This document shows, piece after piece, positions 1,799 to 40,186 of a stretch of 64,000 nt of DNA; position 1 is the first letter of the stretch, and each line of letters starts with the position of its first letter. The DNA is from Rickettsiales bacterium (GTDB lineage: Bacteria > Pseudomonadota > Alphaproteobacteria > Rs-D84): the NCBI GenBank assembly GCA_031266915.1, contig JAISAB010000001.1:37994-101993 (forward strand), in the 5' to 3' direction. The translations under genes were made by a program, and so were the position numbers. The notes below the pieces were generated by a model, which was not told the origin of the DNA, did no database searches, and saw only the letters and a list, made by a program, of their open reading frames with translations.

Positions 1799-4588
1799 AT
1801 GAGCGACAATAAACTTTCCCCCGTCATGCAGCAGTATGTTGATATGAAAGCCGAAAATCCGGATGCTTTGTTATTGTTTCGCCTGGGCGATTTTTACGAG
1901 GTTTTTTTCGAAGACGCCAAAACCGTCAGCGCGGCCATCGGAATTGTCCTGACACACCGCGGCGTCGACGCGAACGGCGACGATATTCCCATGTGCGGAA
2001 TTCCCTGGCATGCGGCGGACAACTATTTCGGCCGGCTGGTTCGTGACGGGTACAAGGTCGCGCTGGTCGAACAGATGGAGACACCCGCCCAGGCCAAGGC
2101 CGCCGGACGAAAATTTGTCACCCGCCAGGTCGTGCGCGTCCTGACGCCGGGCACGCTGACGGACGAGAATCTGCTGACGCCGAAGAATTCGAATTTTCTG
2201 GTCGCGGTCGCTCCCAGGAACAAGGAACAGGAACAAGGAACAGGGGTATTGTCACCCGTTCCTTGTTCCTTTTCCTCGTTCCTGATAGCCGGTTGCGATA
2301 TTTCGACCGGCGAATTCTTTATCGGCGAATCGGCGGCCATACTGGATGATTTGGTCCGCGTCAATCCGGCCGAAATTATTTATCCTGAAACAGACGCGGA
2401 AAACCCAGAAATCATGCGTCTGCGCGACACATTCAAAACGACGCCCGTTTATGAAAAGCTGTACAATCGCGCTGACATCGATCAAATAGTATTTAAGATA
2501 TTCGGACAGAACTTCGCCTCTTCGCGGCAGGTGGAAGAGCGCAGAGTGCAGAGCGCAGTTGAAAAATCGCAGGGCGATTTTTCATCGAATCACGAATCAC
2601 GAGTTACGAGTCACGCCGCCGCCGGTTTGTGTGGCAGCGCGACCTGCAATGGGGCGGTGGCGCTGCTGGCCGGGTATCTGTTCAATACCCAGCGCGACGC
2701 CAATATCGCGTTCCGCGCGCCGTACGCTTTCAAGGCCGGAACGCAATTGCTGGTTGACAGCGCGACTTGGAAAAGCTTGGAAATCGACAGCCCAATCAAC
2801 GACGGCGGAACATGTCTGGTCGACATTCTAGACAAGACCAAAACCGCTGCCGGGGCGCGGCGCCTGCGTTCATATCTGCGCGCGCTGTCGGGCGACATCG
2901 GCGAAATCCGCCGACGCCAGGAACACATCGGCCATCTGATTCTGAACCGCGACGTCATGGGCGGGCTGGAACGGATTCTATCCCGCGTGCCCGACGTCGG
3001 CCGCAGTCTGGCGCGATTGCTGTCGGGACGCGGCGCGCCGCGTGACCTGCGCGTGGCGGCCGATTTTATGGTCATGCTTGGCGATGCAAAATCCATGGGC
3101 GCCCGCTTGGATTCAGATTTGGCGGCCAAGTTCGCAAACATCGACACGCATGACGCGCTGGCGGGTGAATTGAAATTTGCGCTGAACGACGAACTGCCGA
3201 CTTTTTTCCGCGACGGCGGAATCATCCGCGCCGGATTCGACCCGTCGCTGGACAATATGAAAGAACTGGCGAACGGCGCCAAGGAAACAATCGCCGGCCT
3301 GCAGGCTCAGTACGCTGCTGCGACCGGTGTGGGCGCGCTGCGGATAAAATACAACAACATACTCGGGTATTTTATCGAGGTCCCCAGCCCCCGCGCCGAC
3401 GCGCTGATGAATCCTGAAAACGGATTTATTCATCGCCAGACAATGGCCGGCAACATGCGCTTTACCACGCCGCGTTTAATCGATTTGGACAATGATGTCC
3501 GCAGCGCCGCCGAAAAAGCCGGGGCAATCGAATCTGAAATCATTGCGAATCTGATTGAAAAAATCCGGGCGGCGGCCGACGATTTGCTGAACACGGCGGA
3601 ATTAATCGCGGACGCAGACGTGTGGCGCGCGCTGGCCGATGTGGCCGACGAATATTCATGGGTGCGCCCCGCCGTGACCGAATCCCGAGCGTTCGACGTG
3701 CGCGGCGGCCGCCATCCGGTTATCGAGGCCGTTCTGCGTTCCCGCGGCGACGCGTTCGTTAAAAACGACTGCGTCCTGGACGGGCGGCAAATCGCGCTGT
3801 TGACCGGTCCGAACATGGCCGGAAAATCCACCTATCTGCGCCAGAACGCGCTGATTGTCGTGCTGGCGCATCTGGGCGCGTTCGTGCCGGCAGAACGCGC
3901 CACAATCGGCGTCTGCGATCAGCTGTTCAGCCGCGTCGGCGCCAGCGACAACCTGGCCGCGGGCCAGTCAACGTTTATGGTCGAGATGACGGAAACGGCG
4001 AATATTCTGAACCGCGCGACGCGCCAGTCCTTTATCATTTTCGATGAAATCGGCCGCGGAACCGCGACATACGACGGCATGGCGATTGCCCAGGCCGTAC
4101 TGGAATTTTTGGATGACGTCAAACCGCGCACCTTGTTCGCGACACATTATCATGAACTGACCGCGCTGGTACCATCGTCAGAGTTCAAAGTTCAAGGTTC
4201 AAAGTTCAAATATTCCGGTGATGAACCCGGGATCACGATTTCGCAAGACGGTTCGGCTTGCGCCCATCTGAACTCTGTTAACTGTCTGACCATAGAAATT
4301 CGCGAGCATAACGGCGAGATTGTCTTTATGCATAAAATAATTCCCGGCGTGGCCAGCCGCTCCTATGGAATACACGTTGCAAAAATGGCCGGCATACCAA
4401 TATCGGTGATAAATCGCGCCGAAGACGTCCTGAACGCGCTAGAAACCCGGACCGACGCGCCTGCGCGAAAAACGCCGCCTGCGGTCAAAAAGGTCGAAGA
4501 TGTCGACATGATTGTCGACGAGCCGGGCGTAAAACCGCAAAAAGTCGCGGCGCCTGCAAACAAAACACAGCTTTCCCTGTTTGGATAA
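1799..4588 (+). CDS. mutS: DNA mismatch repair protein MutS (carries three in-frame repeat insertions)
   Basis: 929 aa; MQQYxxxK...LFRLGDFYE N-terminus, Walker A GPNMAGKST, TFMVEMTETA; insertions at 2213-2283, 2521-2615, 4181-4210. Confidence 0.9.
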   Translation: MSDNKLSPVMQQYVDMKAENPDALLLFRLGDFYEVFFEDAKTVSAAIGIVLTHRGVDANGDDIPMCGIPWHAADNYFGRLVRDGYKVALVEQMETPAQAKAAGRKFVTRQVVRVLTPGTLTDENLLTPKNSNFLVAVAPRNKEQEQGTGVLSPVPCSFSSFLIAGCDISTGEFFIGESAAILDDLVRVNPAEIIYPETDAENPEIMRLRDTFKTTPVYEKLYNRADIDQIVFKIFGQNFASSRQVEERRVQSAVEKSQGDFSSNHESRVTSHAAAGLCGSATCNGAVALLAGYLFNTQRDANIAFRAPYAFKAGTQLLVDSATWKSLEIDSPINDGGTCLVDILDKTKTAAGARRLRSYLRALSGDIGEIRRRQEHIGHLILNRDVMGGLERILSRVPDVGRSLARLLSGRGAPRDLRVAADFMVMLGDAKSMGARLDSDLAAKFANIDTHDALAGELKFALNDELPTFFRDGGIIRAGFDPSLDNMKELANGAKETIAGLQAQYAAATGVGALRIKYNNILGYFIEVPSPRADALMNPENGFIHRQTMAGNMRFTTPRLIDLDNDVRSAAEKAGAIESEIIANLIEKIRAAADDLLNTAELIADADVWRALADVADEYSWVRPAVTESRAFDVRGGRHPVIEAVLRSRGDAFVKNDCVLDGRQIALLTGPNMAGKSTYLRQNALIVVLAHLGAFVPAERATIGVCDQLFSRVGASDNLAAGQSTFMVEMTETANILNRATRQSFIIFDEIGRGTATYDGMAIAQAVLEFLDDVKPRTLFATHYHELTALVPSSEFKVQGSKFKYSGDEPGITISQDGSACAHLNSVNCLTIEIREHNGEIVFMHKIIPGVASRSYGIHVAKMAGIPISVINRAEDVLNALETRTDAPARKTPPAVKKVEDVDMIVDEPGVKPQKVAAPANKTQLSLFG

Positions 4589-4610: not shown

Positions 4611-5600
4611 ATGAACGGATGGATAATCTTGGACAAGCCGTCAGGCATGACCAGCCGCGCCGCGGGCGGGCGCGTCATGCGTATGTTTGGCGCCGAAACG
4701 TTCGGCCATATCGGAACCTTGGACCCGATGGCGTCGGGATTGCTGCCGATTGCGCTGGGCAATGCCACCAAGATGATTCCTTTTTTCGAGAGCGAAGAGC
4801 GTAGAGCGCAGAGCGAAGGTTCCGCCGCTTCGCGGCAGAGCGCAGGTCGCAAGTCGCAGGTAGAAGATGTTGATAATAACGAACCATCTACGCTCTGCGC
4901 TCTTCGCTCTTCGACCTCTAAAGAATATCTATTCAGCGTTCAGTTCGGATTCGAAACTGATACGCTGGATATTACCGGAACGGTTGTCAAGGAAACCAAT
5001 GTTGTCCCATTGCCGGCTCAGGTTATGGCAGCGTGCGCCGCACTGACCGGAACGATTTATCAAACGCCGCCGGCCTATTCCGCGGTGCATGTCGGCGGGC
5101 GGCGCGGCTATGAACTGGCGCGCGCGGGCAAAGAATTCGAAATTCCGCCACGCCCGGTTACCATCGACGCGCTGGAATTGCTGGACGCGGGCAGAAAATC
5201 CTGGCAATTCCGCGTGGTGTGCGCGCCCGGAACATACGTTCGCGCCATTGCCCGCGACATCGCCGCGATGTGCGATACGGTCGCAACCGTGGACATGATA
5301 CGGCGCCTGCGTACCAGCGGCCTGGATATAAAAGATGCGGTCGGGCTTGATTTTTTAGAAAATCTGTTTCATAATGGCGGGAACTTCGAAGATTATTTGA
5401 AGCCTGTGGATTTCGGACTGGGGGACATTCCGGTTCTGAATCTGAACGACGCGGACGCCGGTTTATATAAACAGGGCGGCTTTGTCGAAATTGCGGCGGC
5501 GGGCGAACCGGGATTGGTTCGGGTCTTTTCAAACGGGCGGTTCATCGGAATCGGAACGTTTGACGGCAACCTGTTGAAGCCGAAACGAACACTTAACTAA
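4611..5600 (+). CDS. truB: tRNA pseudouridine(55) synthase TruB with an in-frame 127-bp palindromic insertion
   Basis: [13 protein letters not shown] and [18 protein letters not shown] motifs; start moved to Met11 (4611) to avoid overlap with mutS. Confidence 0.85.
4789..4915. repeat. Family D palindromic element (gagcgaagagcgtagagcgcagagcg ... cgctctgcgctcttcgctcttcgac) inside truB
   Basis: Arms are reverse complements; copies at 27350-27485 (in queH) and 30911-30995 (fabG-mnmG spacer); fragments at 2521-2560 and 35581-35618. Confidence 0.75.
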
Positions 5601-5614
5601 ACAAAGGAAACACA

Positions 5615-5913: not shown

Positions 5914-5920
5914 AAATAGC

Positions 5921-13993: not shown

Positions 13994-14000
13994 AACACTA

Positions 14001-14102: not shown

Positions 14103-14353
14103 TAAATAACCTCTGGATTTATCTGGCAATTGCGGTATAATGTTCGTCGACAGGCGCGTTGCCTGTTATGGAATTAACAATCCATCACCAAAAGGGTCTT
14201 GAACAGACCATAAACCTTCACCCAAAAGGGGTGGAGGGCGGCGTTATAAGGCTTGCCGAAGGCGTTGCACTATACTTTTGGATAGTTTGTTAATCTCCAT
14301 CCCACCTTGATTTTTAAAGGTGGTTTTCTTTTTGAAAAAAAAAGGGGGATTCG

Positions 14354-14584
14354 ATGGGACGGCAAATCACAGATGACGAAATTCAATTCAACAAAGCGCT
14401 GGGACTGGTGATACGTGTTGCCAGAATAAAGCTTGGCGTGTCGCAAAAGATACTGGGAGAAGTCGTTGGCGTATCCCTGCAGCAGATTCAAAAGTACGAA
14501 GCCGGGGAAGACGGCGTCTCTGTCGCCCGGTTTAACAAAATGGCGACTTATCTGGAAATCCCGTTTAGAATATTTGAAAAATAG
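14354..14584 (+). CDS. XRE-family helix-turn-helix transcriptional regulator
   Basis: 76 aa; LGVSQKILGEVVGVSLQQIQKYEAG is an HTH_3 signature. Confidence 0.6.
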   Translation: MGRQITDDEIQFNKALGLVIRVARIKLGVSQKILGEVVGVSLQQIQKYEAGEDGVSVARFNKMATYLEIPFRIFEK

Positions 14585-14692
14585 CGATCAGCAAACATCA
14601 AATATGCGTTTATTTAAGATTTATGATTTACGGATTTAAGATTTAGTTCAAGTGACAGGAATATATCTTTTTGGTCCCAAAACCTCAAGACT

Positions 14693-14765
14693 CGTCATTC
14701 CCGCTTGGACCACCCACGAAAAACAGTCGTTTTTCGCGGGGCCTGGTGGCGGGAATCCAATGTAT
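14693..14765. repeat. Family H 68-bp hairpin element
   Basis: cccgcttggaccacccacgaaaaacagtcgtttttcgcggggcctggtggcgggaa; near-identical copy, reverse-complemented, at 28086-28152. Confidence 0.7.
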
Positions 14766-15238
14766 TCAAGCTGTGAACAATGCCCGTATGATGAATACAT
14801 TGGATACCGGCCTTCGCCGGGGCTAAAGGCACCCGAGGTGACAATTTTTATTGTCATCGCTTCGCGATGCTTTACGTACCTGCGCTAGGCGTGACAAAAG
14901 TTTGTTTTAATTTAAGGCACATCCCTGTCGGTTGAGCGATAAACTATACGCTATCTGCCATATGCTATTTTTTCCTATTTTTCCATTGTGCTGAAAATTC
15001 GCACGCGCTATAGTTGTCTTGTCGACGGGTGTTCCGTCGATGGGGTCTGATAACCCTTTATTGTGCGTCGTGAATAATCACCGCGCTTTTGCGCCGTTTT
15101 TATTTCGACGAAAAACAACTCCTGACTCGGTCAGGAGGGCGCGATATATCTGAATAAGCGCGCAATTCACAATATTGTTATCAGCCTCCTGACCGCCTAT
15201 TTTCGGCGGTTTTTACTTAACTGCAACAGGAGGATATT

Positions 15239-15460
15239 ATGGGGAAAATTTTGCTGCTTTTGATAATCGCCGCTTTCGCGTCCATTGGCTCGTCGCCATC
15301 GCATGCGGTACAATCATACCAAAGTATAGCGGCATGCACCAATGCGGGCGGGGTGGTTTATGACGGCTGCATGTGCAAGGTCGCAAAAACCACCACGAAC
15401 TACGGCGTCATAACCACCAGCACGGAATGCGGTACCATAGCCGGTCTGGCCTGCATCTAA
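15239..15460 (+). CDS. Small cysteine-rich secreted protein
   Basis: Signal peptide MGKILLLLIIAAFASIGSSPSHA; six Cys in 50 residues; RBS AGGAGG. Confidence 0.4.
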   Translation: MGKILLLLIIAAFASIGSSPSHAVQSYQSIAACTNAGGVVYDGCMCKVAKTTTNYGVITTSTECGTIAGLACI

Positions 15461-15473
15461 AAAAGGATTAAAA

Positions 15474-15857
15474 ATGTCTAGATTTGTCTCTGTTTTTTCC
15501 GGGCTGTCGTTGCTGTCTGGGGCGGCGGCCAGCGCGCCGCCGCCGACTTCGCTTGGCGACGAATGCGACACGAAATCATATACCTGCGCGAACGGATATT
15601 ACGGCACGCCGACCGATAGTTCTACCGGATGTACGCTATGCCCCGAGCACGCTACATGCGCCGGCACGGGCAACACAACATTCATATGTATTTCAGGATA
15701 TTATAAAATTGGCGCCACGTGTGCGCCCTGCCCCGATGGCGGCACATCAATTGCGGGCGCGCGGGCGATAACCGATTGTTATCTGCCCACTGGAACATCA
15801 TTTGAAGATGCGTACGGAACTTTTGAATTGACCGACAAGTGTTATTATAGCAATTAA
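15474..15857 (+). CDS. Cysteine-rich secreted protein (eukaryote-like CxxCP / GYY repeats)
   Basis: Signal peptide; CTLCPEHATCAGTGNTTFICISGYYKIGATCAPCPDGG; followed by a terminator. Confidence 0.5.
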   Translation: MSRFVSVFSGLSLLSGAAASAPPPTSLGDECDTKSYTCANGYYGTPTDSSTGCTLCPEHATCAGTGNTTFICISGYYKIGATCAPCPDGGTSIAGARAITDCYLPTGTSFEDAYGTFELTDKCYYSN

Positions 15858-15884
15858 AAAACCGGCAAAAAAGCCGGTTTTTTA
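15858..15884 (+). terminator. Rho-independent terminator
   Basis: accggcaaaaaagccggt hairpin followed by tttttt. Confidence 0.6.
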
Positions 15885-15887
15885 ATA

Positions 15888-15982
15888 AATAGTCGTTAGT
15901 CTATAGTCATTAGTGAATAGTGCTTAGTTTATAGTGCATAGTTAATAGTTCACTAATCACTATGCACTATTCACTAGTGATT
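15888..15982. repeat. Family A element
   Basis: atagtcgttagtctatagtcattagtgaatagtgcttagtttatagtgcatag...cactattcactagtgat. Confidence 0.55.
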
Positions 15983-16029
15983 AAAAAAACCATCATCCCC
16001 CAAGTTTTTGTAACGCTGACGCTAACAAA

Positions 16030-16330
16030 AACTTTCCCCCTTTATCAAGGGGGACAAGTGCTAAACCAAGGGGTAAAAGAGCTGAGCCAAATGGGATAAG
16101 TGCCAAACCGAGGGGGGAAAAGAGCTGAACAAATTGGATAAGAGCCGAATCAAGGAAGACAAGTGCCAAGTTTTGTGCCAGTGCGCTGTTCTGGGCTGTT
16201 GCCCCTTTCATTTCACGCTTGTTCCCAGCAACCTGGCGCCAGCCACTCTTGTTTCATACTTGTTCCTAGAACTTGGCGCTGGCCCCTCTTGTTAAAGAGG
16301 GGTGAAAATCTTGGCAACTTGTTGCCATAG
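16030..16330. repeat. Degenerate ~38-nt tandem units (acaagtgctaaaccaagggg...) followed by an inverted counterpart
   Basis: Three tandem units around 16045-16170, then cttgttcc...cttggcgctggcccctcttgtt on the other arm; non-coding. Confidence 0.4.
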
Positions 16331-16344
16331 ATTTTCGGGGAGAT

Positions 16345-16470
16345 TAATAGTTAGTCAACAGTCATTGGTCTATAGTCAGTAGTGTATAGCAAATAGCACA
16401 TACAATTAGGTGGTTATTTCAGATTTATGATTTAAGATATAAGATTTAGGCGACATTAAATCTTAAATTT
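16345..16470. repeat. Family A unit followed by family I gatttatgatttaagat repeats
   Basis: tagtcaacagtcattggtctatagtcagtagtg; agatttatgatttaagatataagatttag...taaatcttaaattt. Confidence 0.5.
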
Positions 16471-16537
16471 TCCATTTGCTATTTGATATTTGCTAATTGA
16501 TATTTAAAAAAAGCCGGCCTTTTTGACGATTTTTGCA

Positions 16538-17456: not shown

Positions 17457-17828
17457 CTATTTTGTTATACTTTTCAATAATCCCGTCAGCATTTGATTTA
17501 TTCTTTCTATATCGCTTGTCAGTGTTTCAAACATGTTTTTATTTATAAAATTCAAATCCGACGCCAGCATAATCTGGCATTTTAATTCTGCGGCTGAACC
17601 TCTTGCAATACCAATAAACTGCTTTAACTCTCCGGTTGTAATCCTCGCGCCGCCCTCTGATAAATTAGAACAAACTGAAACCGCCGCACGGCGCATCTGA
17701 CTTGTTAATCCGAATTTTTCATCCTGCGGGAATTCTTTTGTAATTTCATAAATAACCTTTACAAAATTCCTAGATATTTTAAACACATCAAGTTCTTCTA
17801 TCGATTTCATTTTAGCCCCACGTATCAC
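17457..17828 (-). CDS. Four-helix-bundle protein (23S rRNA IVS protein family), second copy, between parA and parB
   Basis: LDVFKISRNFVKVIYEITKEFPQDEKFGLTSQMRRAAVSVCSNLSEGGAR...FIGIARGSAAELKCQIMLA closely matches the family consensus; AT-rich; start may be Met 17810. Confidence 0.65.
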   Translation of the reverse strand: MIRGAKMKSIEELDVFKISRNFVKVIYEITKEFPQDEKFGLTSQMRRAAVSVCSNLSEGGARITTGELKQFIGIARGSAAELKCQIMLASDLNFINKNMFETLTSDIERINQMLTGLLKSITK

Positions 17829-24410: not shown

Positions 24411-24487
24411 GGGTGTGTAGCTCAGTTGGCTAGAGCGTTACGTTGACATCGTAGAGGTCGTTGGTTCGAGCCCAATCACACCCACCA
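24411..24487 (+). tRNA. tRNA-Val (GAC)
   Basis: GGGTGTGTAGCTCAGTTGGCTAGAGCGTTACGTTGACATCGTAGAGGTCGTTGGTTCGAGCCCAATCACACCCACCA; anticodon loop TTGACAT. Confidence 0.8.
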
Positions 24488-24510
24488 ATTTGCAATCCGG
24501 CTTTGGCTTC

Positions 24511-24586
24511 GGATGGTTAGCTCAGCTGGTAGAGCACATCGTTCACATCGATGGGGTCGTTGGTTCGAGTCCAATACCATCCACCA
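24511..24586 (+). tRNA. tRNA-Val (CAC)
   Basis: GGATGGTTAGCTCAGCTGGTAGAGCACATCGTTCACATCGATGGGGTCGTTGGTTCGAGTCCAATACCATCCACCA; anticodon loop TTCACAT. Confidence 0.75.
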
Positions 24587-24894
24587 CCCTTCGCGTCTGC
24601 GACGCTTCGGGTGGCTGCGCTACGGGCGAGATTTAAGAATTTTGAGTACCACGACGTAGTCCGCCAAAGGCGCGACAAAGACGGGTTGATTCAAAATATG
24701 AGTGCCCGCCATATCCCGCAGGGCAAAGTGCGGCTGCTCGGGCGGGACAAAGACAGACGCGGAATATTAAATCATGACTTGTGATTATGGATTCTTTGCG
24801 GTTTTTATGATGCGCGCCGGCGCATAAGTTCTTCTATTTTTCCTTTACACTTTGATTTCTCCGTTTTAAACTCTTGAACATAAAGAGGCTTTTC

Positions 24895-26934
24895 ATGACC
24901 AAGAAAAAATACCTGATAACCAGCGCATTGCCCTATGTGAACAATATTCCGCATATCGGAAACTTTGTCGGCAGCGTTCTGCCGTCCGACGTGTACGCCA
25001 GATTCTGCCGCGCACGCTTTGGTTCGGAAAATGTTTTGTTTGTCTGTGGCGCGGACGCGCACGGCAGCCCGATTGTCATCCAGGCGAAGAAAGAGGGCGT
25101 CAGCCCCGCCGAACTGGTTGCGAAATACCACGCTTTGCACGCGAAAATTTTTCAGGATTTCGATATTTCCTTTGACGGCGGATACGGAACAACCCATACG
25201 GAACTGCAGGTAAATCTGGTTCACGATTTGTTCAGCGCTTTGGATAAAAACGGATTTATAGAGGAAAAGACGACAATCCAACCGTTTTCGGTCGACGACA
25301 ACATATTTTTGGCGGACAGGCAGATAGAGGGAACATGCCCGAAATGCGGTTACAACAAGGCGCGCGGCGACCAATGCGACAAGTGCGGCGAATTGCTGGA
25401 CCCGGCGGACCTGATAAACCCCTATGCTGCGGACAGCGGCAGCAGAAATATTGAAATGCGGGAAACAAAAAATCTTTTCTATCGCGCCGACAAGGTCAAG
25501 GATTCGGTTTCCGCCTGGGTTTTCAAGACCGCCGAGAAAAACAAGTGGTCGCGCTCGGCATTCGCGGCGACGAAAAAATATCTGTCCGAAGACGTTCCGA
25601 ATCCGTCGGTCTCGCGCGATTTGCCATGGGGCATTCCAGTAAACAAGCCGGGCTATGAAGACAAGGTTTTTTATGTCTGGTTCGACGCGCCGTGGGGCTA
25701 TGTTTCGATTTCCCAGGCGGCAAAACCCGGTCGCGCCGCAGCAAACGGCGAAGGCGGATGGGCCGATTGGTGGCACGGCGGCGAAAACTGCCACTATGCG
25801 CAATTCATGGGCAAGGATAACATAAAATTCCATTCGCTGTTCTTTCCGGGCCAGGAAATCGCCTGGGCGGACGGGAATTGGAAAAAGGTCGATTTGCTCA
25901 AAGGCATGAACTTTTTGAATTTCGAGGGCAATAAAATATCCAAAAGCATGGGGAACGGCATCGATTTGTCTCAGGCACTGACGGCTGCGCCGGCCGATTG
26001 CTGGCGCTATGCGCTGATTGCCAGCGCGCCGGAAACCGACGATACCGACTTTACCGTCCGCCGGTTCGCAGACATCGTGAACAAGGATTTGAACGGCATG
26101 CTGGGCAACTTCGTGTCTCGCGTGGCCAAGCTGACCGAAAAGAATTTCGGGCTGACAGTACCCACATTCCAAAAAGGATTCGAAACTCCAATTGAAACAA
26201 TGAACGCACATTTGGCCGATTTGAGCGCCGCGCTGGAGGCCTGCGAATTTCGAAAATCAATCGAGGCGCTGCGTTCCATGTGGGCTGTCGCGAACGAGTA
26301 TATGACATCAAAGGCGCCGTGGACGCTGGTTAAAAACGGCGAAATGATTGCAGCCGGCGCAGTCTTGAACGAATGCTTTCAGATGATAGATTTCTTCGCG
26401 CGCGTGTCCGCGCCGTTTATTCCGGGTGCCGCGGAAAAAATTCAGAATATTTTCCCCGCCAGACACGACCTTTCTTGGCCAACCGAATATGAATGGCGTA
26501 TTCAGGACGGTGAAGAATTTACTGTGCCGGAAAATCTGTTCGAGCGAATCGACGACGCGCGCGTGGCGCAGCTGACCGAAAAATATTCGTCCAAGCCGAC
26601 CGACGCGCTGAAAATCGTCATCGCCAAAATCCTGACCGCAACACCGCACCCGACGCGCGAAGGCCTGTCCGTACTTTCGGTTGACGCAGGCGATGCGGCG
26701 CCTTTGCAAATCGTATGCGGCGCGCCGAACGTCCGCGCCGGTTTTATCGGCGTTCTGGCGCACGTCGGCGCCACACTGCCGGGACAAAAGAAACCGCTGG
26801 CCAAGCGCGCGGTGGCCGGCGTCGAATCGCATGGCATGATGTGCAGCGCGGCGGAACTGGGCGTCGGCGCGGACGACGACAATATTTTGGAACTGGGCGC
26901 AGATTCCAAAATCGGCGAAGAATTCAAGAAATAA
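24895..26934 (+). CDS. metG: Methionyl-tRNA synthetase with C-terminal tRNA-binding (EMAP/Trbp111-like) domain
   Basis: Start Met 24895 (AAAGAGG RBS); LITSALPYVNNIPHIGN HIGH motif; KISKSMGN KMSKS motif; zinc knuckle CPKCG...CDKCG. Confidence 0.9.
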   Translation: MTKKKYLITSALPYVNNIPHIGNFVGSVLPSDVYARFCRARFGSENVLFVCGADAHGSPIVIQAKKEGVSPAELVAKYHALHAKIFQDFDISFDGGYGTTHTELQVNLVHDLFSALDKNGFIEEKTTIQPFSVDDNIFLADRQIEGTCPKCGYNKARGDQCDKCGELLDPADLINPYAADSGSRNIEMRETKNLFYRADKVKDSVSAWVFKTAEKNKWSRSAFAATKKYLSEDVPNPSVSRDLPWGIPVNKPGYEDKVFYVWFDAPWGYVSISQAAKPGRAAANGEGGWADWWHGGENCHYAQFMGKDNIKFHSLFFPGQEIAWADGNWKKVDLLKGMNFLNFEGNKISKSMGNGIDLSQALTAAPADCWRYALIASAPETDDTDFTVRRFADIVNKDLNGMLGNFVSRVAKLTEKNFGLTVPTFQKGFETPIETMNAHLADLSAALEACEFRKSIEALRSMWAVANEYMTSKAPWTLVKNGEMIAAGAVLNECFQMIDFFARVSAPFIPGAAEKIQNIFPARHDLSWPTEYEWRIQDGEEFTVPENLFERIDDARVAQLTEKYSSKPTDALKIVIAKILTATPHPTREGLSVLSVDAGDAAPLQIVCGAPNVRAGFIGVLAHVGATLPGQKKPLAKRAVAGVESHGMMCSAAELGVGADDDNILELGADSKIGEEFKK

Positions 26935-26970
26935 CCGGGAAGAGGAGAGATAAAAACAAAGGATTATAAT

Positions 26971-27291
26971 ATGTATATGACATCAAAAGAACTTCCAGCA
27001 ATGCATAAACTTGCCATACGTGGTTCAGGCAGTTTAGGCGGCAATATGGTGCAGTTTTTCTGCGGGGACCATTGCAAAAACTATCATAACGGAATATGCG
27101 AAAAATATTGCGAGTTTAGTGAAGTCTTTCTTAAGAGGGTGTACATTTCCGATACCCCGTTTGTCATTACCGGCTATTCACCGAATGTTTTTCTGACCAC
27201 CAGCAATGAATCTGATAGAACGAAAATTTTAAATATGTTTAACCAGACAATGGCACAATTCGCAAAGCAAAACGATGGACGCAATGCATGA
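26971..27291 (+). CDS. Hypothetical AT-rich Cys/His-rich small protein
   Basis: ORF only; FFCGDHCKNYHNGICEKYCEF; ~38% GC; overlaps the queH start. Confidence 0.3.
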   Translation: MYMTSKELPAMHKLAIRGSGSLGGNMVQFFCGDHCKNYHNGICEKYCEFSEVFLKRVYISDTPFVITGYSPNVFLTTSNESDRTKILNMFNQTMAQFAKQNDGRNA

Positions 27292-28000
27292 AAAAATCCG
27301 CCTTGTTTTGTTGTCGTGCTGCGCGCCGTGTTCCTGCGGCGCTATAAAAGAGTTAGTAGAGTGTAGAGCGCAGAGCGAAGGTTTCGCCGCTTCGCGGCAG
27401 AGTGAATGTCGCAGGTCGCAGGTAGAAGGTGTTGATAATGACGAACCACCTACGCTCTGCGACCTGCGATCTACGCTCTTCGACTTTATCGTCTTGTTCT
27501 ATAACCCTAATATTTATCCCGATACCGAATACCAGAAACGGTTGGCGGAACAAATCAGATACTGCGAATCATTGGATGTGAAATATGCCGTCGGCGATTA
27601 TGACCACGCCGCGTGGCTGAATTCCGTGCGCGGCCTAGAATCAGAGCCTGAGCGTGGCAAGCGCTGCACGCAGTGTTTCCGCCACAGATTTCGTTTCGCA
27701 AAACAGTGGGCGATGGAAAACGGATACAACGCTATCGCGTCCGTTCTGGGCGTGTCACGTCACAAAGACCAGGCACAGGTCGACAGCGCGGCGCGGGAAG
27801 AAATAGGGAACGGGGAACCCGCCTTCGCCATCCACCTTCGCCGAGGCTACGGGGGACAAGAGGCTACGGCGGGCAGGCAGGAACAAGGAATAATTTATCT
27901 GCCTATCAAATTGGATGAAAGTCTGCGCCAGGAAATTAGCAAAAAGGCCGGCTTTTACCGCCAGAATTACTGCGGCTGCGAGTTTTCAATGCGAAAATAA
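27275..28000 (+). CDS. queH: Epoxyqueuosine reductase QueH (DUF208) with two in-frame repeat insertions
   Basis: LLSCCAPCS, LFYNPNIYPDTEY, RCTQCFRHRF, YRQNYCGCEFS hallmarks of QueH; insertions at 27350-27485 (family D) and 27805-27895 (family E). Confidence 0.7.
   Translation: MDAMHEKIRLVLLSCCAPCSCGAIKELVECRAQSEGFAASRQSECRRSQVEGVDNDEPPTLCDLRSTLFDFIVLFYNPNIYPDTEYQKRLAEQIRYCESLDVKYAVGDYDHAAWLNSVRGLESEPERGKRCTQCFRHRFRFAKQWAMENGYNAIASVLGVSRHKDQAQVDSAAREEIGNGEPAFAIHLRRGYGGQEATAGRQEQGIIYLPIKLDESLRQEISKKAGFYRQNYCGCEFSMRK
27350..27485. repeat. Family D palindromic element inside queH
   Basis: agagcgcagagcgaaggtttcgccgcttcgcggcagag...ggtagaaggtgttgataatgacgaaccacctacgctctgcg; co-linear with the truB copy. 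Confidence 0.75.
27805..27895. repeat. Family E element (ccttcgccgaggctacggcgggcaggcaggaacaaggaa) inside queH
   Basis: Reverse complement of 40094-40186; shares the ggaacaaggaacagg core with mutS 2213-2283. Confidence 0.65.
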
Positions 28001-28017
28001 GCCTTTTGATTATATAT

Positions 28018-28085
28018 CAATTAAGAATTAAAAGTAAATGGGCCGCGCAGCGGCAAGCCGCAATTCATAATTCTTAATTTTTAAT
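28018..28085. repeat. Family B aattaagaattaa element
   Basis: caattaagaattaaaagtaaatgggccgcgcagcggcaagccgcaattcataattcttaattttta. Confidence 0.55.
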
Positions 28086-28152
28086 ACATTGGATTCCCGC
28101 CACCAGGCCCCGCGAAAAACGACTGTTTTTCGTGGGTGGTCCAAGCGGGAAT
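28086..28152. repeat. Family H 68-bp hairpin element (reverse orientation)
   Basis: Reverse complement is ~identical to 14693-14765. Confidence 0.7.
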
Positions 28153-28214
28153 TATATTTGCGAATTGAAAAACATCAGGCTATAATAACCCCGACATCAT
28201 CAGGAGTACAAATT

Positions 28215-29114
28215 ATGTCGTCTATTTTTATCTTCCCCGGCCAAGGCAGCCAATCCGTCGGCATGGGCAAGGATTTGTATGACAGCAACGCGGCCGCGCG
28301 CGCCGTGTTCGACGAAGTCGACGACGCGCTGGACCAGAAACTATCCGATATTATTTTTGGCGGCCCGTCCGACGAACTGACGCTGACCGCGAACGTCCAG
28401 CCCGCGATTATGGCCGTATCGATGGCGATGCTGCGCGCGGCCGGCCCGGAAATGACGACGTACGTCGCGGGCCACAGCCTGGGCGAATACACAGCGCTGT
28501 GTGCGGCGGGCGCATTGACGCTGGCGGATACGGCCCGACTGCTGCGGCTGCGCGGCGACGCGATGCAGCGCGCCGTGCCCGTCGGCCAGGGCGCTATGGC
28601 GGTCGTATTGGGACTGGATATTGAAACATTGACCGATGTATGCCACCGGGCCGAGGCCAAGGTCGGCGGGGACATGGTCTGCGACATCGCGAACGACAAT
28701 GCGCCGGGTCAGGTCGTCATATCCGGCTCTCGACCCGCGATTGAGGCCGCAATGGAACTGGCCAAAGAGATTGGCGCCAAGCGCGCGATGTTGTTGCCAT
28801 TGTCGGTGCCGCCGCATTCGCGCCTGATGGCGCCCGTCGCCGAAGAGATGCTGGGCGCCCTGGACGAGATTCATATCGAAACCCCAACCGTTCCACTGAT
28901 TTCGAACAAGACCTGCGCGCCGATGTCCGACGTCGCCGACACCAAAGAGGCGCTGGTTTATCAAATCACGCACGGCGTGCGCTGGCGCGAGACGATTCTG
29001 GCCCTGCCGGCGCTGGGCGTTACCGAGACAATCGAGGTCGGACCGGGCAGCGTTCTGACCGGCTTGACAACGCGCATCAACCCAAATTTAACCGCAAAAA
29101 AACTGGAAGTATAA
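28215..29114 (+). CDS. fabD: Malonyl-CoA:ACP transacylase
   Basis: Start Met 28215 (AGGAG RBS); FIFPGQGSQSVGMGKDLY and GHSLGEYTALCAAG active-site motif; the upstream ORF-track extension covers repeats. Confidence 0.85.
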   Translation: MSSIFIFPGQGSQSVGMGKDLYDSNAAARAVFDEVDDALDQKLSDIIFGGPSDELTLTANVQPAIMAVSMAMLRAAGPEMTTYVAGHSLGEYTALCAAGALTLADTARLLRLRGDAMQRAVPVGQGAMAVVLGLDIETLTDVCHRAEAKVGGDMVCDIANDNAPGQVVISGSRPAIEAAMELAKEIGAKRAMLLPLSVPPHSRLMAPVAEEMLGALDEIHIETPTVPLISNKTCAPMSDVADTKEALVYQITHGVRWRETILALPALGVTETIEVGPGSVLTGLTTRINPNLTAKKLEV

Positions 29115-29115
29115 A

Positions 29116-29895
29116 ATGAGCATTTTTTCTTTGGATGGAAAAGTAGCACTTGTCACCGGCGCGTCGGGGGTAATCGGTGGCGCTGTTGCGCGCGCGATGT
29201 ATGAAAACGGCGCGACCGTTGTCTTGAATGGGCGCAACACCGAGAAGCTGAACGCTTTGAAAGAAAACTTGACAAACGGGGGGGGGGTACAAACTTCCCT
29301 TTCTTCCCAAGAAGCACATACTGTCGCATTAAGTCTGATGGATGTCGACGCGACGAAAAAATTGGTCAAGTCCGCGACCGAGTTGACCGGAAAAAACATC
29401 GATATTTTAGTGAATGTGGCGGGGCTGCATCAGTTGAAAGTTTTTGGAAAAATATCCAAAGACCTGCTGTACAACATTATGAATATAAATTTTACGATTC
29501 CGTTCATTCTGTGCCAAGAGGTTATGCCCGCGATGGTCCAAAACAAGTTCGGTCGGATTATCAATTTTTCATCCGTTGCGGCGCACGGCGCGGCCGGGCA
29601 GGCGCATTATAATTCGTCGAAATCCGCGGTCGAGGGACTGACATGCTCGTTGGCGTCGAACGAAAACTTCGTCAAAAACGGCGTCACAATAAACGCTATC
29701 GCGCCCGGAATCATCGATTCGGATATGTCGAAAATGATTCGCGGCAAGGCCAAGGAACGCAACCTTATGATGATTCCTATGGAACGTTTCGGCCGGCCCG
29801 AAGAAGTCGCCGGCGCCGCCGTCTTTTTGGCCAGCAATGCCGCAAGTTATATAAACGGCCAGATTATTCGCGTCGACGGTGGAATGGTCCGGTAA
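29116..29895 (+). CDS. FabG-like short-chain dehydrogenase/reductase (paralog), contains a G10 homopolymer
   Basis: GKVALVTGASGVIGGAVA Rossmann motif, YNSSK catalytic motif; poly-G at 29278-29287. Confidence 0.7.
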   Translation: MSIFSLDGKVALVTGASGVIGGAVARAMYENGATVVLNGRNTEKLNALKENLTNGGGVQTSLSSQEAHTVALSLMDVDATKKLVKSATELTGKNIDILVNVAGLHQLKVFGKISKDLLYNIMNINFTIPFILCQEVMPAMVQNKFGRIINFSSVAAHGAAGQAHYNSSKSAVEGLTCSLASNENFVKNGVTINAIAPGIIDSDMSKMIRGKAKERNLMMIPMERFGRPEEVAGAAVFLASNAASYINGQIIRVDGGMVR

Positions 29896-29907
29896 AAGGA
29901 AAACGCC

Positions 29908-30192
29908 ATGCCTGATTTTTTGATTACGATTTCTGAAATCATGATATTTATTTGCGGCGCGGGTTCGATTCTGTTGCTGAACCTGAACAACAAGTATTCA
30001 AAATACGGCGTGTTTATCGGACTGCTGAGCCAGCCTTTTTGGTTCATATCGGCCGCAAACAGCCAATCGTGGGGAATTTTTGCGGTTTCATTTATTTATA
30101 CCGCGTCTTATCTGACAGGCATTTACAATTTTTGGATAAGAATCAATCGGACAAACAAAATAAAAAAAGGAAAGGAAAAATGTTCTCGTTAA
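29908..30192 (+). CDS. Hypothetical small membrane protein between the two fabG paralogs
   Basis: ORF only; three hydrophobic segments; AT-rich. Confidence 0.3.
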   Translation: MPDFLITISEIMIFICGAGSILLLNLNNKYSKYGVFIGLLSQPFWFISAANSQSWGIFAVSFIYTASYLTGIYNFWIRINRTNKIKKGKEKCSR

Positions 30193-30908
30193 AAGACAAA
30201 GTGGCGCTGGTGACCGGCGCGACGGGCGGAATCGGCGTTTGCGTCGCCAAGAAACTGCATGACGCGGGCGCGACGGTTGTCGTGACCGGCCGCAATATTG
30301 ACAAGCTGAACGCCGAGTTCGACGACGCCTATATCAAGATTCCATCCGACCTATCGCTGGATGGCGCGGCGGATGAATTGGTTGCAAAAACTATCGAAAA
30401 GGCCGGTAAAATCGATATTTTAATCAACAACGCCGGCATTACAAAAGACACCCTGATAATGCGCATGACGGACCAGCAGTTCGACGACGTCATCAACACC
30501 AATTTGCGCTCGACCTTCAAAATGTGCCGCGCGGCGGTGCTGCCGATGGCGAAGAACAAATTTGGCCGCATTATCAACATGGCGTCCATCATCGGCGTCA
30601 TCGGCAACGCGGGCCAGGCGAACTATGCCGCGTCCAAGGGCGGAATGATTGCGATGACTAAATCCATCGCAGCAGAGATGGGCAAAAAAGGCATCACGGC
30701 GAACTGCGTCGCGCCTGGATTTATCCGCACGCCGATGACGGATGTTTTGACCGACGAGCAAAAGGAAGCATATCTGAAGCAAATCCCCGCGGGGCGTTTC
30801 GGCGAGCCTGAAGACATCGCCTGCGCATGCGTTTTCCTGGCCAGCGACGGCGCATCGTACATCAACGGCCAGACGCTGCACGTCAACGGCGGGCTGGGAC
30901 GGTTTTAA
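30180..30908 (+). CDS. fabG: 3-oxoacyl-[ACP] reductase
   Basis: Start Met 30180; KVALVTGATGGIGVCVA, NAG, YAASKGG; 243 aa like FabG. Confidence 0.85.
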   Translation: MFSLKDKVALVTGATGGIGVCVAKKLHDAGATVVVTGRNIDKLNAEFDDAYIKIPSDLSLDGAADELVAKTIEKAGKIDILINNAGITKDTLIMRMTDQQFDDVINTNLRSTFKMCRAAVLPMAKNKFGRIINMASIIGVIGNAGQANYAASKGGMIAMTKSIAAEMGKKGITANCVAPGFIRTPMTDVLTDEQKEAYLKQIPAGRFGEPEDIACACVFLASDGASYINGQTLHVNGGLGRF

Positions 30909-30910
30909 CA

Positions 30911-30995
30911 AGTTCGAAGAGCGCAGAGCGTAGAGCGCAGGTGGAGTATATTGATAATAAGGAACCACCTTCGCTCTACGCTCTGCGAATTTCGA
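30911..30995. repeat. Family D palindromic element (intergenic copy)
   Basis: caagttcgaagagcgcagagcgtagagcgcaggtggagtatattgataataaggaaccaccttcgctctacgctctgcgaa. Confidence 0.7.
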
Positions 30996-31007
30996 TCTGA
31001 GGAAAAA

Positions 31008-32660
31008 ATGATAAACTACGACGTCATCATTATCGGCGGCGGGCATGCCGGCGTTGAAGCTGCGGCCGCCGCGGCGCGGCGCGGCGCGAAAACATTGTTG
31101 CTGACTCAGTCGGAAACCGACCTGGGCGCGATGTCGTGTAATCCGTCCATCGGCGGACCGGGCAAATCGCAGATGGTCGCAGAAATCGACGCGCTGGGCG
31201 GAATCATGCCGGTCGCGGCCGATATGTCGGGAATCCACTGGCGCATGCTGAACGCCACGCACGGTGCGGCGACGCGGGCCCTGCGCGCGCAAATCGACAG
31301 GGCTTTGTATTGCAAAGCAATACAAAGAGAGTTAGAGAGTAAAAGAGTTGGAGAGTTAAAGATAGTATTTGAATTCGTGACCGATTTGGATTTAGAAAAC
31401 AAAACCGTCAATAAAAAATACGCCGCGAAATCCATTGTTCTGACCACGGGAACTTTTATGCGCGGGCTGGTTCATCGCGGCGACGAAAAAATTGAATCGG
31501 GCCGTTTGCGGGATGACGGCACCTACCAGGACGCCGACAAAAACATATCGAAAATACTCGAAAAGGCCGGCTTTTCGCTGCTGCGGCTGAAGACAGGAAC
31601 GCCTGCGCGCCTGCGCCGCGATTCGATTGATTTCAGCGGTTTGGAAATCCAGCCCGGCGATGCCGAACATGAATGGTTTTCCGGCGGGGGCGACGAAGAC
31701 GCTGGCCAGGTTTCATGCTTTATCACGCACACAACCCCGGCCACGCACGACATCATCCGCGAAAACATCAATGCGTCGCCGATGTACAATGGCGACATCC
31801 GCGGCACCGGCCCGCGATACTGCCCATCGCTGGAAGACAAGGTCATGCGCTTTCCCGAACACCAAACGCACCATGTTTTTCTGGAACCCGAAGGCCTGGA
31901 CAGCGACCAGATATATCCCAACGGGGTTTCGACCAGCTTTGGCGCCGACATTCAGGAAAAATGGCTGCGCACCATTCCAGGCCTGGAAAACGTGCATATA
32001 GCGCGATTCGGCTACGCCATCGAATACGACGCGATTGATGCGCGGGCGCTGAATGCGAATCTGGAATCCAGAGACATTCCAGGGCTGTTCTTCGCCGGGC
32101 AAATCAACGGAACATCCGGATATGAAGAGGCCGCCGCCCAAGGCGTTGTTGCGGGCGCGAACGCCGCCGCGCGCGCGCTGGGGTTGCAAACGCTGGACCT
32201 GGACCGCACGAATTCTATGATAGGCGTGCTGATTGACGACATCACGACGCTGGGCGTGGACGAGCCGTATCGCATGTTCACATCGCGCGCGGAATACCGG
32301 TTGAGTCTGCGCAGCGACAACGCGATTGCGCGGCTGGGGCCGATGGCCGCGCGGCTGGGATTGATTCCGCAAGCGCGTTATGAAAAAATCTTAAATCTGA
32401 AATTCGAAATCATAAATCGCAACGATGAATTCTATGCCGGGTATATCGCGCGCAACGCGCGCGAAATCGCCGCGTATCGGCGCGACGCCGCCATGGCCGT
32501 TCCATCGGATTTCGATTATAAATCCATGCCCGGACTGACCAATGAATTGATTGAAAAGCTGACACGTGCCCGTCCGCGCAGCATCGCGGCGCTGGGGCGC
32601 ATTCCGGGCATGACGCCGGCCGGCGTCATGGTCGTCCTGCGCAGGATAAAAAACGGCTGA
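31008..32660 (+). CDS. mnmG: tRNA uridine 5-carboxymethylaminomethyl modification enzyme MnmG (GidA)
   Basis: Start Met 31008; YDVIIIGGGHAGVEAAAAAARRGAKTLLLT FAD motif; 551 aa; contains the perfect palindrome ctttgtattgcaaagcaatacaaag at 31305-31329. Confidence 0.9.
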   Translation: MINYDVIIIGGGHAGVEAAAAAARRGAKTLLLTQSETDLGAMSCNPSIGGPGKSQMVAEIDALGGIMPVAADMSGIHWRMLNATHGAATRALRAQIDRALYCKAIQRELESKRVGELKIVFEFVTDLDLENKTVNKKYAAKSIVLTTGTFMRGLVHRGDEKIESGRLRDDGTYQDADKNISKILEKAGFSLLRLKTGTPARLRRDSIDFSGLEIQPGDAEHEWFSGGGDEDAGQVSCFITHTTPATHDIIRENINASPMYNGDIRGTGPRYCPSLEDKVMRFPEHQTHHVFLEPEGLDSDQIYPNGVSTSFGADIQEKWLRTIPGLENVHIARFGYAIEYDAIDARALNANLESRDIPGLFFAGQINGTSGYEEAAAQGVVAGANAAARALGLQTLDLDRTNSMIGVLIDDITTLGVDEPYRMFTSRAEYRLSLRSDNAIARLGPMAARLGLIPQARYEKILNLKFEIINRNDEFYAGYIARNAREIAAYRRDAAMAVPSDFDYKSMPGLTNELIEKLTRARPRSIAALGRIPGMTPAGVMVVLRRIKNG

Positions 32661-32716
32661 ATTCCGTTTTATTTTGCTTGAAATTGGCCGCGAGCGGGGA
32701 TATACTCTTGTCCAGC

Positions 32717-32792
32717 GCCGATGTAGCTCAGCTGGTAGAGCATCTCATTCGTAATGAGGGGGTCGCAGGTTCGAATCCTGTCATCGGCACCA
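32717..32792 (+). tRNA. tRNA-Thr (CGT)
   Basis: GCCGATGTAGCTCAGCTGGTAGAGCATCTCATTCGTAATGAGGGGGTCGCAGGTTCGAATCCTGTCATCGGCACCA; anticodon loop TTCGTAA. Confidence 0.8.
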
Positions 32793-33130
32793 CCATTTTT
32801 GTCCGAACGAAGCGAGGAATACAAAAATGAGTGCCCGCCGGAGCCTGAATTTCGGCGTAGCGCGAAGTGCGAAGTGCGGAGACAAATGGCGAAGGCTTGG
32901 CTGGCCAAGTTTGGAAAGCATCCGCCAAGAAGTGCAATCCGTCAGTAAATTTTTGTGGAAATCGTCAGAAACTTGTACTAGGATTATCGCCGATGGCAAC
33001 ACAAACGGTTATTATTATAGAATAAACAGGCACGCGCTTTGGCGGATGCCCGGGTGCAATGCGCCCGTTTTTTTATCCCGCCCGCGGGGCCGCGAAACGG
33101 GCGGAAAAAGAGTTAAAAAGGAAATACACG

Positions 33131-36181
<3,051 letters not shown>

Positions 36182-40093: not shown

Positions 40094-40186
40094 AGGAACA
40101 GGAACAAGGTGCGGGAACGGGTTGTCTGTTCCTTGTTCCCGCCTGCCCGCCGTAGCCTCGGCGAAGGAGGGTTCCTCGTTCCTTTT
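40094..40186. repeat. Family E element in the pheT-pheS spacer
   Basis: ggaacaggaacaaggtgcgggaacgggttgtctgttccttgttcccgcctgcccgccgtagcctcggcgaagg. Confidence 0.65.

Follow-up and report, generated by a model that had tools for sequence, protein, structure and literature searches.

Analysis of a 64,000-nt stretch of a Rickettsiales bacterium genome (metagenome-assembled genome (MAG) GCA_031266915.1, contig JAISAB010000001.1, positions 37,994-101,993; hereafter the window) revealed that its queH gene, a candidate epoxyqueuosine reductase gene, carries at two sites, in frame, sequences of two dispersed repeat families, called D and E below. The likely explanation, suggested by sequence comparison, is that selfish hairpin repeats entered permissive surface loops of the enzyme, that selection keeps the in-frame, stop-free copies, and that the enzyme is probably still active. 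Direct observations underlying it are the open frame, the repeat-family membership of the inserts, the hairpin of the D element, the loop positions in the predicted structure and the conservation of the enzyme core. In-frame repeats are not peculiar to queH: truB also has a D copy, and mutS has three sites with heptamer arrays that are E-like, D-like or of other kinds. Coordinates are given in Table 1.

The queH gene is a single open reading frame (ORF) with no stop and no frameshift, as had been claimed in the original prediction, made from the sequence alone. Translation would probably begin with the ATG at position 27284, which precedes the stop codon of the upstream ORF by 5 nt. The resulting protein corresponds to the 238-aa NCBI entry MDR1337459.1 ('MAG: epoxyqueuosine reductase QueH [Rickettsiales bacterium]'), which is encoded on a contig of 105,578 nt and is identical from M4. 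The Pfam family QueH (PF02677, DUF208) is matched with 139.9 bits, against a gathering cut-off of 23.5 (E = 1.2e-40), the match falling into two stretches divided by the inserts. Motifs C15-C16-A-P-C19-S20, Y76-N-P-N-I-Y-P82 and C233-G-C235-E-F-S238 are kept, and all Cys and Pro residues of the CCxPC, CxxC and CGC motifs are in place (C15, C16, P18, C19, C97, C131, C134, C233, C235); judging from the Thermotoga maritima structure, these residues would be metal-centre ligands. The hallmarks CCAPCS, YNPNIYP and CGCEFS had been predicted to be intact, and the alignment to QueH homologues proposed as a check agreed, 47 of the 47 columns invariant among 120 homologues being retained. At three of the 88 columns conserved in at least 90% of the homologues the window protein differs (Q26E, G101D, W213L); the range among the homologues is 0-9.

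The nearest homologues are almost all ~179 aa long, compared with 241 aa in the window, and the excess consists of the two inserts. Site 1, between I24-K25 and D70-F71, holds 44 aa in the window and 11 aa in 110 of the 120 homologues; site 2, between D170 and Y208, holds 37 aa, as against 11 aa in 105 of the 120. This length survey, together with the repeat matches described below, supported the claim that queH is interrupted in frame by two different repeat families. The accompanying claim that both are palindromic elements held for D (z = -5.0) but not for the queH copy of E (z = +0.47).

Insert 1 is a D element, and the prediction of such an element in queH was substantiated by its strong palindrome and by a second copy in truB. 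Folded as RNA, it has a minimum free energy of -62 kcal/mol (z = -5.0; none of 200 shuffled sequences was as good), and as DNA a z-score of -4.2. Its arms are composed of GYAGAGC-type heptamers, inside which lie a GCCGC-TTCG-GCGGC mini-hairpin and a loop with TTGATAAT...GAACCA. The truB copy (aligned over 4796-4913) is 88% identical to the queH element over 118 nt, non-repetitive interior included, with 0 chance matches expected. A short-form D hairpin is present in the fabG-mnmG spacer, so that the D loop motif has three matches in the 64-kb window versus 0 expected. Of the six frames, only two lack stops in queH D and truB D alike, and both genes use the identical one, the common peptide being RAQSEGxAASRQS...SQVExVDNxEPxTLCxLRS. 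The queH version (..ECRAQSEGFAASRQSECRRSQVEGVDNDEPPTLCDLRS..) has three Cys, one of which (C62, TLCDLRS) is matched in the truB copy (TLCALRS).

The truB site provides evidence of recent movement. Residues 72-111 of the window TruB are without counterpart in Escherichia coli TruB (1k8w), and the length of 329 aa is found in the window protein alone among the 120 best homologues, the others having 279-296 aa and a clean 39-codon gap. In the nearest relative (L137) the unoccupied site has the sequence AAA GAA AGC CAG CCA AAA GAA; the filled site is GAG AGC [117 nt] ACC TCT AAA GAA, and no target duplication is seen between them. The target (GAAAGC) resembles a heptamer unit, as does host sequence at both D sites. 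Because the insert measures 39 codons, is missing in the other 119 TruB proteins, has an empty counterpart in L137 and is confirmed by a second assembly, D appears to have been mobile recently. Judged from these sequences, it is a genuine dispersed repeat that moved recently in the window's lineage.

Searches outside the window returned little. The D loop motif TTGATAATNNNGAACCANCTNCGCTCT, present three times in the window, had 0 matches in the genome and metagenome contig collections, neither of which includes this MAG. An alignment of the two D peptides found no match in a set of 5.8 billion proteins, where the source proteins were also missed, the query being too short for a set of that size; nor was there a blastn match of D among the PLSDB plasmids. 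An Rfam scan of the window yielded four tRNAs only, and on D two sub-threshold microRNA-hairpin matches, with no known RNA family for the elements.

Insert 2 derives from family E. The original prediction had described it as the reverse complement of the copy in the pheT-pheS spacer, which proved right for two blocks: 27860-27890 matches 40159-40129 with 97% identity (E = 4e-10) and 27807-27829 matches 40182-40160 with 91%. The queH tract covers ~2/3 of the spacer element, the distal GTTCC arm being missing, and a 30-nt addition separates the blocks. It is not palindromic (RNA z = +0.47, with 135 of 200 shuffles as good; DNA z = -1.3). The queH tract is, then, derived from the palindromic spacer element but truncated, enlarged internally and not self-complementary. 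Both pheT and pheS lie on the minus strand, and the orientation of the spacer element relative to transcription is that of the queH copy. Read in the queH frame, the spacer element would give KRNEEPSFAEATAGRREQG.., where queH has NGEPAFA[..]EATAGRQEQG and mutS has RNKEQEQGTG; intragenic E-type copies, like those of D, thus use one common frame. A scan of metagenome contigs with the E array CAGGAACAAGGAACAGGAA gave 48 mixed matches, mostly low-complexity or resembling ribosome-binding sites and none from the L001 population introduced below, and was discarded.

An AlphaFold model built on the homologue alignment has a predicted template modelling score of 0.81 and a predicted local distance difference test score (pLDDT) >90 in the core; for insert residues ~31-66 and 180-205 the pLDDT is 46-67, insert 1 having 48-67. 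The best PDB matches of the model in Foldseek are T. maritima QueH structures 7lc5, 7lc7 and 9d86 (E = 1e-11, TM 0.81 on target length). Insert 1 joins alpha1 (17-35) to beta2 (68-75), and insert 2 joins the helix 166-177 to the strand at 207-208. The model suggests that the QueH fold is kept, with both inserts as low-confidence loops. Judged from the Rossmann-like topology, the inserts would sit at the sheet edge opposite the C-terminal ends of the strands, which bear CCAPCS and NPNIYP.

Related loci extend the picture. The queH core of a JGI metagenome contig (L001) has 81% amino acid identity to that of the window, and both sites are occupied at matching codon positions: site 1 by a shorter D-type heptamer hairpin (z = -6.3; AIKQ-VAE-RRAQVEG..), site 2 by a GGAACAAGGAACAGGAA / GGAACGAGGAGCAGGAACAAGGAACAGGAA tract. 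This shorter E-type tract at the matching position makes the queH E insert probably old. Over 162 core codons the non-synonymous rate (dN) is 0.13 and the synonymous rate (dS) 1.15, giving dN/dS = 0.11, so that the insert-bearing queH would be under purifying selection, provided the inserts are orthologous; orthology seems the simplest reading of the matching site, family and frame. The inserts differ in length between the window and L001 (44 versus 37 aa at site 1, 37 versus 18 aa at site 2) and their sequences are not conserved, which is evidence against a function of the peptides. The window queH D is 88% identical to the young truB copy, yet its interior is very unlike that of the L001 D; this would reflect either conversion of, or re-insertion into, an older D remnant, or independent hits in the two lineages.

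The same two sites carry other sequences elsewhere. In MAG GCA_031555055.1 (L002) the gene order is identical (metG-orf-queH-fabD-fabG-mnmG-ileS), site 1 is occupied by an unrelated palindrome, AAACTCCCCCC...GGGGGGAGTTT (z = -6.9), and site 2 is without insert. Among the 120 homologues, other inserts were found at site 1 in P0003, P0027 and P0005 (..VIPAQAGT..) and at site 2 in P0037, P0062 and P0092. The ~180 extra residues at site 2 of P0018 and P0066, from two other lineages, comprise a complete DUF559 (Vsr-like endonuclease) domain, in frame. At the DNA level (L087 3001-4107, GCA_031554955.1; also L088) this module is flanked by 48-nt inverted repeats (L087 3508-3555 and 3927-3974), and the queH-DUF559 fusion of L087 is reproduced by a second assembly. 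Since P0037 and P0062 have at site 2 only the matching 'PPPLAGG/PANGGGN' repeat, the DUF559 module and the bare repeat look like the autonomous and solo forms of one loop-inserting element. From these comparisons, QueH sites 1 and 2 emerge as insertion hot spots across lineages. The window's closest QueH relatives come from an environmental alphaproteobacterial MAG and from alphaproteobacteria of the gut resembling 'Candidatus Enterousia', not from Rickettsia.

Heptamer repeats abound in the window. The census of arrays was made with Tandem Repeats Finder; an earlier strict hairpin finder had given 8 elements, missing D because of its long loop and bulges. It counted 50 tandem arrays of period 7, in which at least 15 different units occur. 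Their density of 7.8 per 10 kb is ~16-fold higher than the median of 0.49 per 10 kb in 80 loci of the nearest GTDB genomes; high density is common to loci L001-L004 alone (6-16 arrays per 10 kb). At least 8 array pairs form palindromes with unrelated units, e.g., TAGGTAC, AATTAAG, AGGAACA, AGAGCGA, ATAGTGA and GTAATCG. The non-coding 15% of the window holds 25 arrays, and 20 are within mutS, truB, queH, mnmG, ileS, pheT, dnaG and nth, those in ileS, pheT, dnaG and mnmG being without demonstrated insertion. MutS (1799-4588) has three in-frame repeat-derived inserts relative to E. coli MutS, of ~+13, +34 and +30 aa. Consensus units of intragenic arrays are stop-free in every phase of the coding strand in 15 of 16 cases, and those of intergenic arrays are stop-free on both strands in 3 of 29; such a bias is expected if selection filters intragenic copies. 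Heptamer runs are read in all three phases and stop-free units survive in genes, and therefore the D and E families occur intragenically. Further arrays are exemplified by those at 1382-1441, 1694-1782, 15903-15976, 41869-41923, 42901-43002 and 46469-46539, and some heptamer units resemble TAnGAnT variants.

Table 1. Features of the window and of the predicted QueH protein
Feature	Position	Strand	Remarks
queH ORF	27275..28000	+	241 aa; Pfam match, homologue alignment, predicted fold
Insert 1, D element, in queH	27349..27487	+	compound hairpin; residues ~27-69, net +33 aa
Insert 2, E derivative, in queH	27805..27890	+	residues ~178-205, net +26 aa; non-palindromic remnant
30-nt (10-codon) addition within insert 2	27830..27859	+	not in the spacer copy; partial repeat of adjoining CCTTCGCCGAGGCTACGG
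Insert and junction peptides of predicted QueH			AQSEGFAASR, SQVEGVDNDEPPTLCDLR, GYGGQEATAGR
Second D copy, in truB (ORF 4581-5600)	4781..4925	+	queH-like orientation and reading frame; exactly 39 codons
Short-form D hairpin, fabG-mnmG spacer	30911..30998	+	loop motif TTGATAAT...GAACCAnCT common to queH and truB copies
Full E palindromic element, pheT-pheS spacer	40094..40186	-	hairpin z = -3.6
E-like GGAACAA/GTTCCTT palindrome in mutS	2210..2289	+	in frame; peptide RNKEQEQGTG...PVPCS, same frame as E peptide
D-like AGAGCGC array and CGAATCA array in mutS	2513..2615	+	in frame; together ~34 aa beyond E. coli MutS
TCAAAGT array in mutS	4178-4210		in frame
Palindromic pair directly 3' of queH	28019..28152	.	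AATTAAG-family hairpin 28019-28087 and 73-nt element 28080-28152
Upstream ORF	26971..27291	+	106 aa, four conserved Cys; overlaps queH start

Taken together, hairpin-forming repeats dispersed in this same genome would have invaded queH on two occasions, and both insertions would have been retained because the enzyme was not destroyed. The E-type element would have come earlier, into the loop before the last strand, and would later have decayed, losing one arm and gaining the 10-codon addition. D (unit ~117 nt) would behave as a copy-and-paste repeat that landed in the alpha1-beta2 loop. Having a multiple-of-three length and a stop-free frame, both inserts would be translated as floppy hydrophilic surface loops. 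The elements themselves are probably selfish DNA with no required function, gene-breaking copies being purged by purifying selection. As for their movement, there is a hint of microhomology-mediated insertion at heptamer-like targets.

Several points weigh against this account. Positions 27401-28122 are known from a single MAG assembly. Pfam scans of the window ORFs revealed no transposase over the 64 kb, and the elements show no target-site duplication or other mobility mark. The other queuosine-pathway genes tgt and queA were not seen within the window. Divergence between the window and L001 is near saturation (dS = 1.15), and the argument for selection after insertion depends on the inserts being orthologous and not independent hot-spot hits. 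Within the protein, Q26E flanks insert 1, and W213L replaces a nearly invariant Trp (at least 90% of homologues) beside insert 2. Finally, we infer from the open frame that queH is translated, inserts included, and the production and activity of the protein are likewise deduced from sequence. At residue 213 (27911-27913), TTG (Leu) stands for TGG (Trp), a single-base change just past insert 2 that may reflect true adaptation or a loosening of constraint, or may be an error in sequencing.

It is unlikely that the inserts originated by growth in place, through heptamer slippage producing a local microsatellite expansion and then a hairpin. The abundance of arrays (50, with at least 15 units, at ~16x the density of relatives) is in line with such growth, as are the heptamer-like host sequence at both D sites and the difference in E tract length between the window and L001; many bacteria have an excess of heptamer repeats, for which slippage of the polymerase has been suggested (PMC4692102). 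However, the D copies of queH and truB, genes 22.5 kb apart, are 88% identical over 118 nt, and this match extends to the TTCG mini-hairpin and to the loop with TTGATAAT...GAACCA, which local slippage cannot yield; the truB insert is a clean 117-nt block missing in all relatives. Slippage may well be the cause of later length changes.

We consider it quite unlikely that queH is a young pseudogene, in which the insertions inactivated the enzyme and the frame has not yet decayed. Queuosine synthesis is dispensable in many bacteria, three of the 88 conserved columns deviate, with W213L beside insert 2 among them, and translation could be hampered by the -62 kcal/mol hairpin, located 75 nt into the mRNA. 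Yet none of the 47 invariant residues is altered, the overlap (coupling) of queH with the upstream ORF is a conserved arrangement, and L001, with both insert types at both sites, gives a core dN/dS of 0.11 over 162 codons. Moreover, elements are present in mutS and truB and period-7 arrays in ileS, pheT and dnaG, and the essential ones among these genes cannot all be dead.

Exaptation of the inserts, either as an advantageous peptide (providing a new surface, or additional Cys in the vicinity of an Fe-S enzyme) or as an mRNA hairpin regulating queH translation, is very unlikely. Inserts are kept at both sites in two lineages, the D peptide of queH has three Cys, and the hairpin is very stable. 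Against this, insert sequence and length differ between the window and L001, the cores of which are 81% identical, and only C62 of the three Cys is matched in truB. The inserts also have low pLDDT, unrelated elements occupy the same loops elsewhere, and the D element occurs in unrelated proteins as well. Abergel and colleagues reportedly found in 2006 that deletion of a Rickettsia palindromic element (RPE) from the Rickettsia guanylate kinase was neutral or beneficial.

The possibility that repeat-induced mis-joins in the MAG produced chimeric inserts is extremely small. The queH protein is on record from one contig only, and de Bruijn contigs of the same sample in the Logan assembly of run SRR14710922 (L139, L086, L138, L085) break at or inside repeats: at 27400 in the queH D (L139), at 28123, within the 73-nt element downstream of queH (start of L086), and at 2571 in mutS. 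Nevertheless, Logan reproduces window positions 24424-27400 and 28123-33829 with 0 mismatches, covering the queH start, the left D junction and the first ~50 nt of D, and contig L138 equals window positions 2571-5949, again with 0 mismatches and with the truB D insertion complete. The queH and truB copies of D differ at 12% of positions and therefore are not collapsed repeats; in-frame inserts occupy matching sites in an independent metagenome (L001) and in a different MAG (L002, with its Logan twin L003), and a chimera would have, at each of two sites, a one-in-three chance of keeping the frame. Also considered and rejected were an intein, an intron and programmed excision, as no splice-like or intein motifs were found and the inserts are ordinary repeat copies.

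Beyond the insertion of selfish repeats into permissive loops, a wider generalisation may be considered, with doubt. D and E could be the two visible representatives of a lineage-specific class of 'heptamer-array palindromes' that has yet to be described, all generated or moved by one heptamer-based mechanism, but at present this is a speculation that we hold to be rather improbable. The architecture of the class, equally tentative, would comprise many sequence-unrelated families, each with 3-6 tandem 7-nt units, a loop and an inverted array. A shared mechanism might conceivably be a protein recognising DNA with a 7-nt period, or slippage and then a switch of template at microhomologies, both candidates being no less doubtful. 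If the class is real, its members would flood intergenic DNA, only units stop-free in every phase on both strands (AGAGCGC for D, AGGAACA for E) would settle in the loops of essential proteins, and the elements would be a continuing source of new surface peptides.

The surroundings of queH have features of their own. The 73-nt palindromic element of the pair directly downstream (GGATTCCCGCC...GGCGGGAAT type; 28080-28152) has an inverted copy at 14697-14769, 13 kb away, with 99% identity. The metG-orf-queH arrangement is kept in L001, L002 and L087. The intervening small Cys-rich ORF (100-107 aa, CxxxC...CxxxC, without Pfam family) is found at 26971-27291 (+) in the window, at 24-347 in L001 and at 9702-10004 in L002, and in many Enterousia-like genomes, too, a comparable ORF separates metG from queH; its product could be a QueH partner, e.g., in metal or electron delivery. 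Next to parB, 2.5 kb (14000-16530) are nearly gene-free, with dense heptamer hairpins and 21-, 40- and 42-nt tandem repeats (16046-16293), and may constitute an origin of replication or a region akin to a centromere. Between housekeeping genes, at 12368-12721 (+) and 17457-17828 (-), there are genes for '23S rRNA intervening sequence protein' (a bAvd-like four-helix bundle); one such gene lies between parA and parB, and a like placement is seen in the relative L002 (160-501). After the type IV secretion genes for VirB3 and VirB4 (53479-56254) comes what is probably a defence or mobile island (57062-63967). It encodes a restriction-modification enzyme of Type ISP (57062-60061), a phage integrase whose gene is split (62145-62803) and, at 63011-63967, a SIR2-like protein.

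In-frame insertion of repeats into conserved proteins is documented mainly in Rickettsia, with scattered cases of repetitive extragenic palindromic (REP) sequences and miniature transposable elements with inverted repeats (MITEs) elsewhere. The queH locus would represent a similar process in a different, uncultured alphaproteobacterial lineage, i.e., a new example of a known phenomenon and not a new kind. It combines an event of recent date, the truB insertion with its empty site in a relative, with an older one, the decayed E tract of queH, common to a sister lineage. The two QueH loops tolerate 20-190 extra residues in several lineages, which may be useful for engineering or tagging QueH. 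A rule is suggested for repeat families that enter genes, namely a heptamer unit stop-free in three phases on both strands. For annotation, proteins of outlying length and Pfam matches split in two can, in such MAGs, be real, and in the window's lineage fragmented assemblies would systematically truncate insert-bearing genes.

Among known systems, heptanucleotide arrays comprise the short tandemly repeated repetitive (STRR) sequences of cyanobacteria, GGGAATC in Xanthomonas and GGGGAYT in Nostoc; they are lineage-specific and sometimes form inverted pairs (PMC4692102). The GGGACCG x4 arrays of Geobacter metallireducens are found 'within genes ... as well as between genes' (PMC2700814). The window arrays are similar in having ~3-6 tandem heptamers, in being over-represented in particular lineages and in forming, in some cases, inverted-repeat pairs. 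Known arrays, however, involve one or a few motifs per genome and are mostly intergenic, whereas the window has at least 15 motifs and eight palindromic pairs, and one of its families has a conserved non-repetitive interior.

REPs of the GTAG and CGTC super-families may be intragenic (Di Nocera et al. 2013), the CGTC type predominating in Alphaproteobacteria (PMC3733652), and mutS, dnaG and truB are among the genes hit in the window. Yet REPs are single stem-loops of 20-40 bp with a terminal GTAG/CGTC tag, often linked to a REP-associated tyrosine transposase (RAYT), whereas D and E are compound hairpins of 90-140 nt. A GTAG occurs in the left arm of the queH D (GTAGAGTGTAGAGC) and is internal in the truB copy, while the L001 element begins with GTCG; no RAYT (Y1 transposase) was detected in Pfam scans of the ORFs of the 64-kb window. 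Bacterial MITEs known to make in-frame fusions include QMITE1/2 of Coxiella (PMC5896051) and the ERIC and BOX elements (PMC10969869). D and E resemble them as non-autonomous inverted-repeat elements, at times in frame within ORFs and adding residues. MITEs, however, are defined by terminal inverted repeats, target-site duplication and descent from insertion sequences (IS), whereas the truB site is without duplication and no parent IS was seen in the window; the QMITE cases, moreover, mostly concern gene ends or hypothetical proteins and not the interiors of conserved enzymes. Membership of the REPs was thus ruled out by size and tag, and that of the MITEs by the absence of target-site duplication at truB.

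The closest likeness is with RPE-1 to RPE-10 of Rickettsia, interspersed palindromes of 100-150 bp that occur between genes and in frame in housekeeping genes (Ogata et al. 2000/2002; Claverie & Ogata 2003). Each RPE family has a conserved peptide, insertion sites that suit fold and function, and lineage-specific expansion (PMC1779305, PMC10969869, PMC3733652), and an RPE-7 remnant of 63-84 bp is present in pheT of all Rickettsia (PMC1779305). D compares well in size (117-139 nt), in palindromic fold (z = -5.0) and in having three copies with a shared loop motif in 64 kb versus 0 expected; in family E the spacer copy is palindromic (z = -3.6) and the queH copy is not (z = +0.5). A single frame would be translated for D in queH and truB, and likewise for E-type tracts in queH, mutS and the L001 queH. 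The predicted structure places the inserts in helix-to-strand loops (pLDDT 46-67), and its topology would put them at a distance from the active site. Differences are that the arms in the window consist of tandem heptamers, that two families occur in one 179-aa enzyme core, and that the host is not a Rickettsia (NCBI label 'Rickettsiales bacterium'; nearest QueH relatives Enterousia-like or an environmental MAG). D and E are therefore not filed as RPEs but, by analogy of architecture and behaviour, would work like them.

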